Below are positions 10,325 to 43,560 of a DNA stretch of 64,000 nt, piece by piece. The translations under genes and the position numbers were made by a program. Source of the DNA: Alphaproteobacteria bacterium (GTDB lineage Bacteria > Pseudomonadota > Alphaproteobacteria > UBA828); contig CBDCCI010000001.1 of assembly GCA_965214705.1 (NCBI GenBank), positions 128,001-192,000 on the forward strand, read 5' to 3'. The notes beneath the pieces were generated by a model. It made no database searches. It saw nothing but the letters and a program-made list of their open reading frames with translations, and had not been told where the DNA came from. Each line of letters begins with the position of its first letter. The first letter of the stretch is position 1.

Positions 10325-10430
10325 AGCGGCGTAGCTCAGTCGGACAGAGCCCCCGCATTCGACGGAAATCAGCGTGACAACTGAGAGTACGGGCGGGGAG
10401 ACGCGGGTTCAAGTCCCGCCGCCGCTCCCA
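10325..10430 (+). ncRNA. tRNA-like RNA with 36-nt expanded anticodon loop
   Basis: Acceptor AGCGGCG/CGCCGCT, TA, D-arm GCTC-AGTCGGACA-GAGC, anticodon stem CCCGC/GCGGG, variable GAGAC, T-arm GCGGG-TTCAAGT-CCCGC, C73, encoded CCA. Confidence 0.85.
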
Positions 10431-12504: not shown

Positions 12505-12614
12505 TGGCCGGGGAGGGGGCGCCGCGCGCGTAAGCGCGGAGCATCGTGCGTCCACGCGCGCGGAGCGCACGATCGAACGGAGCGAGCGCTCGGCGACTGA
12601 GGGAATGAATAAGT
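12505..12614 (-). repeat. Multi-hairpin dispersed repeat, copy 1
   Basis: Minus strand ACTTATTCATTCCCTCAGTCGCCGAGCGCTCGCTCCGTTCG matches 22895-22936. Confidence 0.7.
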
Positions 12615-12628
12615 TGGGAGAGGCGAGC

Positions 12629-22894: not shown

Positions 22895-23027
22895 ACTTAA
22901 TCATTTCCCTCAATCGCCGGGCGCTCGCTCCGCTCGCTTGGCTCCGCGCCTGGCGGCGCGCGGCGCTAGCGCGCCGTCCGGGCCTGCGGCCCGGTTCCCG
23001 TCACGGCGAATTCCTCATCGGTTGCCG
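22895..23027 (+). repeat. Multi-hairpin dispersed repeat, copy 2
   Basis: Aligns without gaps to 43395-43500 and by its head to 12574-12614 (reverse strand). Confidence 0.75.
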
Positions 23028-23089
23028 GGAACGTGCCCCAAACCATGGTGCGGTGCACAGGGAGGGGCGGCGCGGGGCAGCATCGCGGG

Positions 23090-23836
23090 ATGAGCCAGGA
23101 ACCATCCCGCGAGAACAGTCACGCCATGCAGAACGAACCCCCCAAGAGCACGACGGCCGCGGCATTCGGCCGCTCCTCCATCAAGCGCCTGCCGCCCAAG
23201 CTGCGCGAGGCCGTGGACGCGGCCATCGCGGACGGCGCCACCATCGACGAGATCACCGCCCGCATCCGGGCCGAAGGCGAGACATGCTCGCGCTCGGCCG
23301 TCGGCCGCTACGCCAAGAACATGCGCGACCTGATCCGCCAGCAGCAGGAGACCGACCGCACCATCAAGGCGTGGGTGGATGCGCTGGGCGAGCGGCCGGA
23401 GGGCCAGGCGGGGCTCATCCTGATCGAGACCCTGCGGACCATGGCGCTCGCCACCATGGCTCGTCTCAGCGCGCGGGAAGAGCCCGTGTCGACGGAGGAG
23501 CTCGCCCGCCTCGCCCTCACCCTCAAGCGCATCGAAGGCACCGACAAGCTCCGCAAAGACCGGGAGCGGGCGGCAAAGAAGGCGGCGAACGACGCAGACC
23601 GCGCCAAGCGCCAGGGCGGGCTCTCGCCGGAGGCGGTCGCCATCATCCGCGCGGAGGTAGAGGGCAGGCCCCCGCCACCCCCGCCTGCTCCCCGCACCGT
23701 CACGTCGGTGCCGGTGGACCCGTGGAACCCTGCCGAAGCCCGCCTATACCCATCGATCCCAGCTGATCCCAGCGAGTCCCGCTCGAATAATTCGTTCCCG
23801 TCTCATGGCATGTCAGAGGGAATGCCCGGCGGATAA
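23090..23836 (+). CDS. DUF3486 / Mu-like gp27 (putative small terminase) family protein with Pro-rich tail
   Basis: GRSSIKRLPPKLRE...TIDEI...SRSAVGRY N-terminus and GLSPEAVAIIR near the end; start could be 23126. Confidence 0.75.
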   Translation: MSQEPSRENSHAMQNEPPKSTTAAAFGRSSIKRLPPKLREAVDAAIADGATIDEITARIRAEGETCSRSAVGRYAKNMRDLIRQQQETDRTIKAWVDALGERPEGQAGLILIETLRTMALATMARLSAREEPVSTEELARLALTLKRIEGTDKLRKDRERAAKKAANDADRAKRQGGLSPEAVAIIRAEVEGRPPPPPPAPRTVTSVPVDPWNPAEARLYPSIPADPSESRSNNSFPSHGMSEGMPGG

Positions 23837-23838
23837 AG

Positions 23839-23892
23839 ATGCCCGGAACAAGTCGGGGCATGACGTTGTGAGAGAGGGAGGGGGGACGTAAG
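23839..23892. repeat. REP-like palindrome plus G-rich repeat fragment
   Basis: ATGCCCGGAACAAGTCGGGGCATGAC is related to 43528-43553; GGAGGGGGGACGTAAG is identical to 27991-28006. Confidence 0.65.
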
Positions 23893-23911
23893 AGGCGGCG
23901 GCCGGCCGTGC

Positions 23912-34140: not shown

Positions 34141-34522
34141 ACCAATCCTTGAGCCGCCGGGCTCGTCCCGATCATCGCAAAGCGGCGCGGGGGTGACAAC
34201 CGAATGTCGTGCTCGCGTTTGATGGCGCTCCGTCCTTGCGATGAGGTAGCGCCATTCCGTTGGAATGAAAGGAGCCGCCGAGAAACCCCAGTTGAACGAA
34301 GCCGCTACGCGGAGTTAGCGGCGTAGAGTTCATTCATTTCCGAGGCGTCGCGGGTGCCGTTTGTTCTGTGCGTTCGCTTCCCGGTTGCGTCAGTGGCGCT
34401 CCGCCCGTCGGGTGGCGGATCCCCAGCAGCCTCCCGATCACCAGTGGTTAGCATCGACCCCTGCGACGGACCGTCGCCGGATCGGTCCGGCGGCGCGCCG
34501 TCGCGATCCAGGGAGATCGATA

Positions 34523-35401
34523 ATGACCGGGACCGCGTGCGACACGAACACCGTCACCCCTCTTCGCCAGCGCATGGAGGAGCAGCTCCGCATCGCCAAT
34601 CTGGCCGCGAGCACGTCCAAGGCCTACATCTGCGAGATCAAGAACCTGGCCAGGTACTACGACGCCTCGCCGGACGAGCTCGACGCCGAGCAGGTGCGCC
34701 AGTGGTACCTGGGGCGGATCGACAAGGGGCTCAGTCCGGGCACGACCAACGTCTCCTTCGCCGCGCTGAACTTCCTCTACATCGACACACTCGGCTGGCC
34801 TGACCATGTCGCCGGCCTGCGCTCCCGCAAGAAGCCCGGCAAGCTGCCGCGCTACATGTCGGAGCAGGAGGTCGAGCACCTCATCCTTGCGACACCCGAC
34901 CTCCGCCACCGTGCTGCCATTGTCACCGGCTATGGCGGCGGGCTCCGCATCTCCGAGACCTTGGCCATCAAGGTCGGCGACATCCTGTCGGAGAAGAAGC
35001 TGCTGCACATCCCCTCCGGCAAAGGCGGCACCGAGAGAATGGCACCGTTGCCGGACATCGTCATCCACTACTTGCGCGTCTACTACAGGAACATCTGGCC
35101 GCGTCCGACGAACTGGCTCTTCTACGGCGTCTCGCTCGACAGGCCCATCGCAACGGAGACCTTGCAGGCCGCCTTCAGGAGGGCGCGCGACATTGCCGAG
35201 CTCGACCGCAGCTACACCTTCCATTGCCTGCGCCATTCGGCGGCGACCCATCTCCTCGAGCGCGGCGGCGATATCGAGGTGATCCGGGACATGCTCGGCC
35301 ATCGAAGCGCGAACACGACCCGTCACTACGCCCGCGTCACCGGCAAGATGTTCGAGGGCCTCGACCACCCGATCTCAGGCTTCGCAGCGTTGCGCAACTG
35401 A
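34523..35401 (+). CDS. Tyrosine recombinase/integrase
   Basis: GLRISE, GKGG, HCLRHS.ATH, LGH, TTRHY catalytic residues. Confidence 0.93.
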   Translation: MTGTACDTNTVTPLRQRMEEQLRIANLAASTSKAYICEIKNLARYYDASPDELDAEQVRQWYLGRIDKGLSPGTTNVSFAALNFLYIDTLGWPDHVAGLRSRKKPGKLPRYMSEQEVEHLILATPDLRHRAAIVTGYGGGLRISETLAIKVGDILSEKKLLHIPSGKGGTERMAPLPDIVIHYLRVYYRNIWPRPTNWLFYGVSLDRPIATETLQAAFRRARDIAELDRSYTFHCLRHSAATHLLERGGDIEVIRDMLGHRSANTTRHYARVTGKMFEGLDHPISGFAALRN

Positions 35402-35407
35402 CGGCGC

Positions 35408-36649
35408 GTGGAGGCCGAACGCGCGGGCGTGGCGGAGATCTTCCGCCGCGCCGGCGCCGCTTTCCGTGAGCGCCACAAAGGGCGCATCGACGCCGCCCGG
35501 CTCAAGGTCATGGGCGCCATCGAGGCGTGCCGCACCGCCGTGCTCGGCGGCCACATGTACGCCTGCGAGGGCTGCGGGCGCGAGCATCCGCTCTTCAACT
35601 CCTGCCGCAACCGCCACTGCCCCACCTGCCAGGGTCTCGCCGCCAACCTCTGGAGCGAGGAGCGCGCCGGGGACATCCTGCCGGTGCCCTACTTCCATGT
35701 GGTCTTCACCCTGCCCAAGGAGGTTGCCGCCATTGCCTTCTGCAACCGCAGGGTGGTGTTCGACATCCTCTTCCGGGCCGTCGCCGAGACCCTGCGCACC
35801 ATCGCCGCCGATCCCCGCCACGGCGGCATGCGCATCGGCGGCACCGCGGTCCTCCATACCTGGGATCAGAAGCTCCGCTTCCACCCGCACCTGCACGTGG
35901 TCGTGCCCAACGCGGGCTTCGACGTAGACAGTGGCGAGTGGAAGACGGGGAGCACCACCTTCCTCGCCCCCGTCAAGGTCCTCGGCAGCCTGTTCCGCCG
36001 CCTCTTCCTCAAGGAGCTCGCCCGCGCCCACGGCCGGGGGGACCTGGAGTTCCACGGCACCCTCGCCCACCTCGCCAATCCCGGCGAGTTCCACGCCACG
36101 CTTGCCGCCGCCCGGGCCAGGGACTGGGTGGTCTACGCCAAGCGGCCCTTCCGCGGGCCTGAGCAGGTCTTCCGGTACCTCTCGCACTACACGCACAGGA
36201 TCGCCATCTCCGACAGCCGCATCGTCTCCTTCGACGGCGAGACGGTCTCCTTCCGCCACCGAAAGCCCAAGGCGCCGGGGCAGAGAAAGCCGCGCTACGG
36301 CATCGCCACCGTGAGCGCCGACGAGTTCATCCGCCGCTTCCTGAGGCACGTCCTGCCGGACGGCATGCACCGCATTCGCTACTTCGGCATCCTCGCCAAC
36401 GGCTGCCGCGCCAGCACGCTGGAGAGAGCACGCCAGGCTCTCGGCGCCCTCGGCTGCGCCGCCCCCGAGGGAAGCGTGGACGGCGCTCAGGCCGAGCCCG
36501 ACGAAGAGCCCGAGATCGGCACCGCGCCCGTGGCCTGCCCCCACTGCGGCGGCGTCATGCGCCTCGTCCGCGAAATCCGCCGCCGCCATGAGCCCCGCTC
36601 GACGCGCGGCCCGCCGGCGCTGCCGCCGACCCACAGGGGGAAACCGTGA
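35408..36649 (+). CDS. IS91 family transposase (Zn-finger + Y2_Tnp)
   Basis: CEGCG...SCRNRHCPTCQ, HVVFTLP, LHTW...HPHLH, YLSHY, RIRYFG, C-terminal CPHCGG. Confidence 0.93.
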   Translation: MEAERAGVAEIFRRAGAAFRERHKGRIDAARLKVMGAIEACRTAVLGGHMYACEGCGREHPLFNSCRNRHCPTCQGLAANLWSEERAGDILPVPYFHVVFTLPKEVAAIAFCNRRVVFDILFRAVAETLRTIAADPRHGGMRIGGTAVLHTWDQKLRFHPHLHVVVPNAGFDVDSGEWKTGSTTFLAPVKVLGSLFRRLFLKELARAHGRGDLEFHGTLAHLANPGEFHATLAAARARDWVVYAKRPFRGPEQVFRYLSHYTHRIAISDSRIVSFDGETVSFRHRKPKAPGQRKPRYGIATVSADEFIRRFLRHVLPDGMHRIRYFGILANGCRASTLERARQALGALGCAAPEGSVDGAQAEPDEEPEIGTAPVACPHCGGVMRLVREIRRRHEPRSTRGPPALPPTHRGKP

Positions 36650-36911
36650 GACGCCCGCTCGCTTCGGCCCCGCGCAACGGCGCCAAAGCGCCGACGCACG
36701 ACCGAACCTGTCTCCGCTTGAGCCGGGCTGACAGCCCTCGGCTCACACCCCGCTCAGTCCTCGCAGCGTGCGCCCGCATGCCTGCCGAAAGACCGGCGCG
36801 AGCGTCGATTTTATGCGCAACTCTGCTGCCGGTGGATGCCGCCTGACGCTGACATCAGCGCACTTTCCACATAGCTCAACTTCGCCTCTCGTGGCCCGCG
36901 GCTTCGTTCAA

Positions 36912-36953
36912 AAGGGTTGGGCAGGCTCTCGAGAGAGAGCCTGCCCAACCCTT
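36912..36953. other. Perfect 19-bp inverted repeat abutting the element's right end
   Basis: AAGGGTTGGGCAGGCTCTC-GAGA-GAGAGCCTGCCCAACCCTT. Confidence 0.8.
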
Positions 36954-37048
36954 AACCTTTGTCGGTCACCTGTGGCCGGCAAATTCGCTTGTTGGACACT
37001 TTTGCTCAAAAGTGGCCAACAACGAGTGTTGTTGGCCATGGATGACCG

Positions 37049-42323: not shown

Positions 42324-43387
42324 TGATCGACGCTACCACCCCGCTCATGCAGCGCATCCGGCACTTCTGGCCGGTGGTCAATCTGTGCATCGGGCTGCTC
42401 GTCATCACGGCGATCGTGGTCGCGCTCGACGACAGGATCCTGGCGCGGACGCTGACCGAGGGCCTGATCCGCGTCGTGATCGTGGTGGCGCTCTACATGT
42501 TCATTGGCAACTCCGGGATCATGTCGTTCGGCCACATCGGCTTCATGATGATCGGCGCCTACGCCACCGGCTGGCAGACCTGCTGCCCCTACACCCGCGA
42601 GATGTTCATGCCGGGGCTGCCGGGTTATCTGTTGGACAACAGCCATCATTTCGTGCTTGCGATCTTCCTGGCGGGGCTCTTGAGCGCCTTTGTGGCCCTG
42701 ATCGCGGGCATTGCGCTGATGCGATTATCGGGAATTGCCGCATCCATCGGCACCTTCGCTTTCCTGATGATCATCTATTCGGTCTATCTGCGCTGGAGCA
42801 CCTGGACCTCGGGCGCGAGCTCGGTGATCGGACTGCCGCAGACGACCACGCCCTGGGTCGCCTATTGCTATGCGGTGGTCACGATCTTCGCGGCCTTCTT
42901 CTATTCACGCTCCAAATTCGGCCTCGCGCTAAGGGCGTCGCGAGACGATGAGGTCGCGGCGAAGGCGGCCGGAGTCAACGTCATCGGCCAGCGCCTGCTC
43001 GCCTTCGTGATCAGCGCGTTCTTCTGTGGCATGGCGGGTGGCCTCTTCGGCCACTTCCTGGGGATGCTCACGGTCGACACCTTCTTCCTGAACCTGACGC
43101 TGATCACGCTGGCGATGCTAGTGATCGGGGGCATGCAAAGCCTCTCCGGTGCCGTCGTCGGCGTCGTGGTGCTGACCGTGGTGATCGACCTGCTCAAGAA
43201 CCTGGAGAGCGGGATGTTCGGCAAGGACGGCTTCGTGCTTCCCACCAGCAGCACCTGGGTGGTGGTGGGCGTGGTGATGATGCTGATCATCATCTTCCGC
43301 CGCAGCGGAATCACCCGGAACGCCGAGCTCTACTGGCCGTTCAAGAGCGACATCACCGCCGAGGGCGCGCTCAGGCGCCAGTCCTGA
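42320..43387 (+). CDS. HAAT ABC permease (LivM-like)
   Basis: SFGHIGF..IGAY, GLALRASRDDEVAA..AGVN. Confidence 0.9.
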   Translation: MMIDATTPLMQRIRHFWPVVNLCIGLLVITAIVVALDDRILARTLTEGLIRVVIVVALYMFIGNSGIMSFGHIGFMMIGAYATGWQTCCPYTREMFMPGLPGYLLDNSHHFVLAIFLAGLLSAFVALIAGIALMRLSGIAASIGTFAFLMIIYSVYLRWSTWTSGASSVIGLPQTTTPWVAYCYAVVTIFAAFFYSRSKFGLALRASRDDEVAAKAAGVNVIGQRLLAFVISAFFCGMAGGLFGHFLGMLTVDTFFLNLTLITLAMLVIGGMQSLSGAVVGVVVLTVVIDLLKNLESGMFGKDGFVLPTSSTWVVVGVVMMLIIIFRRSGITRNAELYWPFKSDITAEGALRRQS

Positions 43388-43394
43388 CCGGCGG

Positions 43395-43560
43395 CGCCGG
43401 GCGCTCGCTCCGTTCGCTTGGCTACGCGCCATTCGGCGCGGCGCGCAGTTGCGCGCTCCGAGCCTCCGGCTCGGCCCCCATCATGGCAGACTCTTCGTTG
43501 GGTTGCCGCGCGGCGCGGGCGACGTGAATGGTCGGGGCAAGTCCGGGCATGAAGAGAGGA
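43395..43560 (+). repeat. Multi-hairpin dispersed repeat, copy 3, followed by REP-like palindrome
   Basis: 80/106 identical without gaps to 22915-23020 by manual count; ATGGTCGGGGCAAGTCCGGGCATGAA at 43528-43553. Confidence 0.75.

Follow-up and report, generated by a model that had tools for sequence, protein, structure and literature searches.

A dispersed multi-hairpin repeat with compensatory base changes in alphaproteobacterial genomes: a probable REP-like mosaic element and putative attachment site of an integrase island

MHE is the name given here to a dispersed repeat family of 100–135 nt that occurs in a small number of related bacteria from soil and water; three of its copies lie in the window, i.e., the whole stretch of 64,000 nucleotides that was analysed. 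Taken as a whole, the observations are best explained if the MHE is a lineage-specific REP or intergenic mosaic element, that is, non-coding DNA of 100–135 nt, a reading to which we assign a probability of roughly 0.6. A mosaic repeat similar to REP/BIME elements is the preferred reading of the family, ahead of an RNA gene. The new result shown by comparison of loci between genomes is that the MHE serves as a docking site for other mobile DNA.

Copies in the window and anatomy of the element

The sequence-only reading of this DNA had placed three copies at 12505-12614 on the minus strand and at 22895-23027 and 43395-43508 on the plus strand, and this is where they sit. The genome from which the window was taken (G000) measures 7.92 Mb in three contigs with 67% G+C. 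The relevant features of the window, with bit scores from the covariance model R1 that is introduced below, are the following.

12505..12615, minus strand: truncated MHE copy consisting of the head, H0, an extra hairpin as insert, H1, and of H2 the 5' arm alone (R1, 36 bits, E 2e-4)
22895..22994, plus strand: core of an MHE copy (R1, 101.3 bits)
22905-22924, plus strand: conserved head TTCCCTCAATCGCCGGGCGC of this copy, preceded by the AT-rich 5' end
22923-22937, plus strand: H0 of this copy
22936-22943, plus strand: GCTTGGCT of this copy
22945-22960, 22961-22976 and 22978-22994, plus strand: H1, H2 and H3 of this copy
22995..23035, plus strand: optional tail hairpin H4 of this copy, TTCCCG...CGGGAA around GGCGAATTCCTCATCGGTTGCC (from folds)
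23036..23850, plus strand: separate repeat adjoining this copy, with a 5' motif (CC)AAACCATGGTGCGGTGCAC..., a Mu Gp27-like gene and short direct repeats at the 3' side
23033-23836, plus strand: the Mu Gp27-like ORF (PF11985, E 7.8e-28; phrog_426)
43376..43474, plus strand: MHE copy with a damaged head, CATTTCCCTCA being lost (R1, 73.7 bits)
43425-43440, 43441-43456 and 43458-43474, plus strand: H1, H2 and H3 of this copy, which also has H0
43475..43512, plus strand: tail hairpin H4 of this copy, GGCAGACTCTTCGTTGGGTTGCC (from the alignment with other long copies)

The layout of the MHE consists of a conserved asymmetric head (TTCCCTCARNCGCCGGGCGC ... GCTTGGCT) around the hairpin H0, the GC hairpins H1-H3, and an optional H4. 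In order, an AT-rich 5' end is followed by a near-invariant block, TTCCCTCA-RN-CGCCGGGCGC, H0 with the loop (A)TCC, the invariant GCTTGGCT, and H1, H2 and H3. The stems of H1-H3 vary among sub-families and genera while their complementarity is kept, and the loop of H2 is RGTC in most copies (AGTC or GGTC in 55 of 74). According to the alignments, the copies are single asymmetric units with all hairpins in one orientation. Three modules are optional: a C-rich extension at the 5' side, an additional hairpin behind H0, and H4, which in the alignment is present in about a third of this genome's copies; partial tandems occur as well. These modules are joined in several combinations, which makes the family a mosaic in the sense of the BIME/RIME-type elements.

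No gaps are needed to align the copies at 22895 and 43395, as had been read from the letters (22915-23021 vs 43395-43501, 107 nt, 76%; repeat family D6), and the three quoted pairs of hairpins are present in both. H1 is CGCGCC-tggc-GGCGCG in the former (22945-22960) and CGCGCC-attc-GGCGCG in the latter (43425-43440). Both arms are changed in H2 (CGGCGC-tagc-GCGCCG at 22961-22976 vs GCGCGC-agtt-GCGCGC at 43441-43456) and in H3 (CCGGGCC-tgc-GGCCCGG at 22978-22994 vs CCGAGCC-tcc-GGCTCGG at 43458-43474). The head is common to the copies at 22895 and 12614-12505 (minus strand), the latter of which has the extra hairpin ATCGTGCG...CGCACGAT, an insert module that recurs in other MHE copies. The minus-strand copy is broken off inside H2 and lies 15 nt past a stop codon. 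The copy at 43376 starts immediately 3' of the stop codon of the upstream gene, and the head is intact in its orthologous copies in G006 and G017, the two nearest relatives.

Family size, distribution and location

With the three copies as query, blastn yielded 121 alignments in the own genome, and iterated nhmmer yielded 50 matches, 36 of which span at least 90 model positions. The covariance model R1, which was built from 25 copies (alignment A1), has 46 matches here at E <= 0.01. Thus, the repetition is far beyond chance (about 50 matches by blastn/nhmmer and 46 by the covariance model). The search of relatives with such a model, which the sequence-only reading had proposed, covered 49 genomes of the order and was positive in 18 of the 20 congeners, each of which has 6-83 MHE copies; R1 found none in the two complete congener genomes G015 and G016. 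Matches with weaker scores were obtained in two sister genera, g19 (7 of 10 genomes) and g20 (5 of 5), and no matches in seven other genera of the family; the five genomes that represent a sister family were negative as well. When public genomes were scanned for exact occurrences of the head pattern, the matches listed included Nitrospirillum, Niveispirillum, Oleisolibacter, Rhodospirillales MAGs and strains filed as Azospirillum sp., together with a few scattered others, which may be due to chance. A close MHE record was not found in a plasmid collection. For annotators, the covariance model explains intergenic stretches that had no annotation, about 46 of them in each genome of this group.

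According to our own crude gene calls, all 43 merged loci in the genome are intergenic. The four possible orientations relative to the flanking genes are represented by 12, 11, 10 and 10 loci, as expected of random intergenic placement, and a count by hand over the 46 model matches gave a balance of 21 to 21 for the orientation relative to replication, on replicons that are rearranged and have a weak GC skew. At 13 loci in 13 other genomes, the neighbours of the MHE are ordinary metabolic genes. Inverted pairs of MHE copies are rare; one that was examined encloses, instead of a short spacer, phage-like tail genes (DUF1833, Gp80-like, DUF6950), and such genes between an inverted pair are found in two species (G000 C3:2809280-2811646 and G013 C2:1126194-1128521).

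Maintenance of the hairpins

From the changes between copies, the sequence-only reading had proposed selection on a single-stranded DNA or RNA structure. Compensatory changes are also found in a larger alignment (A2) of 74 matches, 73 of them distinct, from several genera, which was fitted to the structure of the model. Standard pairs occupy 91.7% of the cells in this alignment, vs 75.6% after shuffling and 19.8-41.7% in slid controls, and changes on both sides occur in 22 of the 24 pairs, vs 13.6 after shuffling and 9-11 in slid controls. The cells changed on both sides number 223, vs 54.5 in shuffled alignments (none of 500 shuffles reaches 223) and at most 46 in slid controls; given the kinship of copies within a genome and the genus-specific stems, the independent compensatory events amount to tens at most, far below these cell counts. 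The same measures under the model's own structure are 97.3% pairing, 19 of 28 pairs and 201 cells. Distinct fully complementary stems amount to 14/25 for H3, 7/16 for H2, 9/30 for H0 and 4/8 for H1. The outer helix in the head that was initially drawn by RNAalifold, with two G-U pairs, has no double changes; the true register of H0, GC-NNNN-(A)TCC-N'N'N'N'-GC, was revealed by other genera. Within the genus, H0 has a 2x2 mismatch; in the other genera the stem is perfect, and four types of pair occur at its two middle positions.

Since the folding energies of single copies are only modestly better than those of shuffled sequences (z -0.8 to -2.6), the case for a structure rests on covariation and not on energy. 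Covariation supports the view that the hairpin structure is probably under selection or otherwise maintained. Template-switch correction of quasi-palindromes could perfect the stems even without selection.

DNA repeat or structured RNA

The covariation and the four hairpins, together with the conserved, single-stranded, pyrimidine-rich head, would also suit structured RNAs. These could be small RNA genes or cis elements in mRNA ends, which would stabilise or terminate the transcript or sequester ribosome-binding sites via the CCCUC-rich head. Many MHE copies begin 0-60 nt from a stop codon, and a three-palindrome REP of Bradyrhizobium is transcribed in 3' UTRs, as stated in the excerpted text of PMC5082802. 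On the strand running from head to hairpins, G.T wobbles in H1-H3 exceed A.C mismatches by 25 to 6, but several of these are shared by descent, which inflates the count. By minimum free energy, the head strand is ahead when the full element is folded (55 to 42), and the other strand is slightly ahead when the hairpin part is taken by itself (63 to 27). Against such RNAs, a co-oriented gene lies upstream at 20 of the 43 loci, which shows no orientation preference, the conserved unit is too tight for a promoter, and a T-run after H3 is absent. Around the copy at 22895, no promoter-like or terminator-like site was found. With Rfam 15, only a tRNA was matched in the window at gathering score, and nothing matched between 22800 and 23150 even at E <= 10. 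Thus, neither of the two outcomes that would have counted against the sequence-only reading, a match to a described family or a lack of covariation in a larger alignment, was obtained. The earlier suggestion of an unannotated structured ncRNA therefore gained no positive support, with neither an orientation preference over the 43 loci (12/11/10/10) nor a promoter or terminator at the copy examined. On account of these results on orientation, promoter, Rfam and strand, RNA genes or cis-acting RNAs are ranked below the DNA repeat and are considered unlikely. The tRNA match in the window, at 10325-10427, measures 103 nt as compared with a model of 71 positions, and this gene may have an insert or a long extra arm.

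Turnover at orthologous loci

Turnover of the MHE as a DNA repeat was assessed at 30 MHE loci of the nearest relatives, G017 and G006, whose flanks are 94-97% identical to the own genome. At about 10 of these, the own genome has the MHE in place at equal spacing. An extra 0.7-2.4 kb is inserted at six loci (from four places), the interval is much shorter and the MHE absent at another six, the flanks lie on different contigs at six, and a single flank was found at two. Thus, the presence/absence polymorphism that the sequence-only reading had wanted to see checked is there, at 6 of the 30 loci. The cleanest indels, L174 and L175, have neither a duplication of flanking bases nor terminal inverted repeats. 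Across the genus, L174 has an MHE in G017, G010 and G008, a remnant of about 45 nt in G006, and none in the own genome and G005. With the remnant retained in G006, the absence in the own genome is a loss and not an empty target. Gains have probably occurred as well, as implied by the range in copy number together with the non-orthologous positions; a polarised insertion event was not found among the loci compared.

At the level of single junctions, new heads repeatedly abut either the H3 loop, where ...CCGGGCCTG is followed directly by ACTT..., or the 5' H0 arm in an older copy that is truncated, and the junction of an H3 loop with a new head is repeated in contigs of other strains from public sequencing runs. 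Matches in these runs were confined to assembled contigs and to metatranscriptomes of low likeness. At L167, the MHE lies within the loop of a different palindromic repeat, and a few copies lie between halves of another such repeat. Halves of one such palindromic family (CCCCTCCTCACCCCGGCCCTCTCCTCCCC ... GGGGAGGAGAGGGCCGGGGTGAGGAGGGG) often flank the MHE, as if the MHE were in its loop (at L167 and L172 in the relatives, and at C3:1466300-1466430 and C3:2521990-2522060 in G000).

Candidate enzymes

The sequence-only reading had offered a REP/MITE-type element moved by an HUH enzyme. The first half was right as to the kind of element, which is extragenic, dispersed, variable among close relatives and mosaic. 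The second half is not supported by the distribution of these enzymes. Y1_Tnp/RAYT (PF01797) has no match in the own genome or in any of the 20 congeners, i.e., in none of the 21 genomes of the genus, while control genomes were positive. Y2_Tnp, of the IS91 type, is present in only 2 of the 20 congeners, vs 18 of 20 for the MHE.

The own genome, with 116 Y2_Tnp matches of which one lies in the window (35837-36409), might nevertheless suggest that the MHE is a miniature, non-autonomous derivative of its IS91-type (HUH Y2, rolling-circle) insertion sequence and is moved by the transposase of the latter. Such an element, of which the genome holds about 100 copies, lies at 34292-36960 of the window. 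Its terminal inverted repeats measure 14 nt, and its right end has an outer hairpin of 19 bp. At its left end (34292 onward), the word GTTCRTTCATTTCC is found ~35 nt inside, and the 5' end of many MHE copies is (AC)TCGTTCATTTCCCTCA; furthermore, head-to-tail junctions and the absence of target duplication would fit rolling-circle elements. However, nhmmer and blastn detected no similarity between the MHE and the insertion sequence beyond this word of 9-12 nt. The word occurs 143 times in the genome (98 times in the insertion sequence, about 16 times in the MHE and about 29 times elsewhere), where 12 occurrences are expected. Moreover, genomes with 83, 71, 68 and 61 MHE copies have no Y2_Tnp. 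An IS91-type origin is, therefore, very improbable, and the enzyme was rejected as the mobiliser because of its distribution and the lack of shared ends. A gene enclosed by inverted MHE copies was likewise rejected, as the pair examined holds the phage-like tail genes mentioned above and no candidate enzyme.

A Gp27-type repeat adjoining MHE tails

Directly behind H4 of the copy at 22895 starts a repeat of another type. Its 5' motif of 60-80 nt begins with (CCGG)ACCATGGTGCGGTGCAC and ends near a conserved ATG, and an exact 14-mer of this motif is found at 28 places in the genome, 9 of which are directly behind an MHE tail (H4). The Mu Gp27-like gene follows the motif in six units that are 80-93% identical and in a further three that have diverged more; units of this type are located at 23036-23850 of the window and, in G000, at C3:2005297, C1:2454641, C1:2967243(-), C1:124740(-) and C1:550106(-). 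Gene-less short forms consist of the 5' motif and a 3' block of 11-nt direct repeats of the GGGCCACCTTG type, ending in GGCCGGAATAGGCCGC; the unit in the window has repeats of the ATCCCRGC type in place of these.

The intergenic site of the copy at 43395 is occupied by a Gp27-type unit without MHE in G008, and L162 holds an MHE with the motif in G017 and the motif alone in the own genome. The Gp27-like gene is present in 17 of the 20 congeners and absent from G011, which has 35 MHE copies, and from genus g19. Thus, the gene is not needed for the MHE, and it was discarded as its mobiliser. As to the unit itself, its sole gene encodes a small-terminase-like (DUF3486) protein and a known transposase is absent; the gene lies between a conserved, structured 5' motif and, on its 3' side, arrays of direct repeats of 9-11 nt. 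Up to 17 matches to the gene are found per congener genome, and a protein collection contains 879 homologues.

The MHE as a docking site

In five MHE copies, the 5' part is foreign and runs into a tyrosine-integrase gene, P0122 (Arm-DNA-bind_3 and Phage_integrase domains). This integrase island is found at G000 C1:265379-266665 and in four sister copies. The junction on the integrase side is always at the 5' arm of H1, where ...ACTCGT(T/A)AGTCT is followed directly by (A/C)CGCGC..., and the H1-H3 parts that follow are of different MHE sub-types. Conversely, four head-only copies end in ...GCTTGGCTACGCG(C/A)C, after which a common foreign sequence follows. Where the own genome has split halves, a complete and uninterrupted MHE is found in G006 and G001. 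The upstream flank of this intact element corresponds to C1:4000428-4001116 in the own genome, adjoining a head-only copy (C1:4001117), and its downstream flank to C3:1322596 onward, adjoining an integrase-linked H1-H3 copy (C3:1322460). From this match of one intact element to both split halves, the MHE is the predicted attB of the integrase island, with the crossover placed in or near CTACGCGC, in the 5' arm of H1.

That the halves of one target are on different contigs points to a later rearrangement and suggests exchange between replicons via copies of the island. The use of a repeat as attachment site would also explain that several copies of the island are found per genome and that MHE loci coincide with breakpoints of rearrangements. 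The pairing of an attL at C3:1253559 with the attR at C3:1322460 as the ends of one island of 69 kb was rejected, as their flanks are on different contigs in G017 and the real partner of this attR is on C1.

A hairpin block lies upstream of the integrase gene at all eight loci, in six genomes, where the integrase is at least 91% identical; at 21 loci with more distant integrases, no hairpin block was found upstream. No tRNA gene was found near the integrase loci. Other mobile DNA is found at MHEs as well: a second, unrelated integrase (P0123) lies beside a truncated MHE at C1:57485, and the end of an IS5-like element coincides exactly with H3 of the MHE at C3:2522063.

Truncated MHE copies mark the ends of the integrase island, 9 of the 28 Gp27-type ends adjoin an MHE, and 6 of the 30 loci of the relatives are at rearrangement breakpoints in the own genome, which might suggest that MHE copies are non-propagating leftovers (att sites or ends) of such larger mobile elements; however, most copies are complete and lie between housekeeping genes with no mobile gene nearby, the intact MHE predates integration at the tested locus, and the MHE is carried by genomes that lack the integrase (G011, G014, G007) or have no Gp27 gene (G011, genus g19), so that this is the least probable of the explanations weighed here. 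The integrase P0122 was also rejected as the mobiliser of the MHE, since it occurs in G015 and G016, which carry no MHE, and had no match at E <= 1e-40 in G011, G014, G007 and genera g19 and g20.

A possible mode of propagation

No mobilising enzyme was found among the candidates: Y1 is absent, and none of Y2, the Gp27-like gene and the integrase tracks the distribution of the MHE. If the MHE is a propagating DNA repeat, its folded single strand would be copied or moved by a protein acting in trans, which would read the invariant head and the H2 loop and would be neither a RAYT nor consistently an IS91-type enzyme. It is tempting, but doubtful, to extend this to a RAYT-independent counterpart of the REPINs: long-lived, vertically inherited, folded-single-strand elements, with a host enzyme that reads the head and the RGTC loop, which would offer a harbour for mobile DNA. 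If so, the integrase islands, the Gp27-type cassette and the insertion sequences would have evolved to use a safe, multi-copy harbour, and the three genera would hold an untapped sequence- and structure-specific DNA enzyme as well as an integrase with an attB in a hairpin arm.

Relation to known repeats and attachment sites

To our knowledge, dispersed palindromic repeats are common, and outside the enterobacteria and pseudomonads few have been linked to a mechanism. No new principle is involved here. The MHE provides a clean example of hairpins that compensatory change keeps intact in three genera without a RAYT partner, and it thereby raises the question of what else propagates or maintains such repeats.

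REPs and REPINs with their RAYT transposase are known from Pseudomonas and enterobacteria, and the definitions used here follow the accessible portions of PMC3337134 and PMC3116915. As far as those portions go, the MHE resembles them in being a short, GC-rich, extragenic palindromic element with tens to hundreds of copies and a lineage-specific sequence, and in its vertical persistence with turnover and without target duplication. It agrees with a REP in consisting of short, imperfect palindromes that are extragenic and present in many copies (46 matches, 43 intergenic loci). However, a RAYT is found in none of the 21 genomes of the genus, and instead of the inverted REP doublet of a REPIN, the MHE has one asymmetric head and three or four different hairpins; because of these two differences, it is not filed under the REP/REPIN-RAYT systems. 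Unlike a MITE, it lacks terminal inverted repeats and target-site duplications at L174 and L175, and unlike an IS91 derivative, it shares no ends beyond the word of 9-12 nt and does not co-occur with Y2.

Among mosaic elements, RIME were reportedly described by Osteras and colleagues in 1995 as intergenic mosaic elements of rhizobia. By description, the MHE is, like the BIME of E. coli and the RIME of rhizobia, an intergenic mosaic of palindromic units and short motifs, and RIME share with it the occurrence in alphaproteobacteria; again by description, it is set apart from both by its strongly conserved, non-palindromic head. Br-REP1 of Bradyrhizobium japonicum has three palindromes in a row, with the central unit CCGGAATCTCGAGATTCCGG, and was derived from 3' UTR transcripts (excerpts of PMC5082802). 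It is, like the MHE, alphaproteobacterial and intergenic, with a copy number that is very unequal among related genomes, but its sequence is different, and these excerpts report neither a conserved head nor a use as integration site (PMC5082802). To the extent that they describe it, Br-REP1 is the nearest described alphaproteobacterial analogue among those compared (PMC5082802). A literature search, which was partly off target, returned nothing on repeats of Nitrospirillum or Niveispirillum.

As an attachment site, the MHE has parallels as well. The tRNA genes are the attB of P4-type integrases. REP sequences are said to be targets of insertion sequences, reportedly after work of Tobes and Pareja from 2006. 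Like both of these targets, the MHE is a structured, conserved, multi-copy landing site and, as in P4-type integrases at tRNA genes, the integrase gene adjoins the junction at which the 3' part of the target is retained. Unlike a tRNA gene, the attB is here a dispersed repeat of about 46 copies, which offers many possible sites for an island, and one genome holds five integrase-linked halves and four head-only halves. The split and intact loci thus provide direct comparative evidence that the attachment site of a tyrosine-integrase island is a repeat and not a tRNA gene. The most useful points are this attB in a hairpin arm and the absence of any known partner enzyme.

The variable intergenic regions that hold the MHE contain further repeats. 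Short hairpin repeats, GGGGCAAGTCCGGGCATGA / ATGCCCGGAACAAGTCGGGGCATGAC, are found in the same regions at 43515-43550 and 23855-23900 of the window and at locus L136 of G008.
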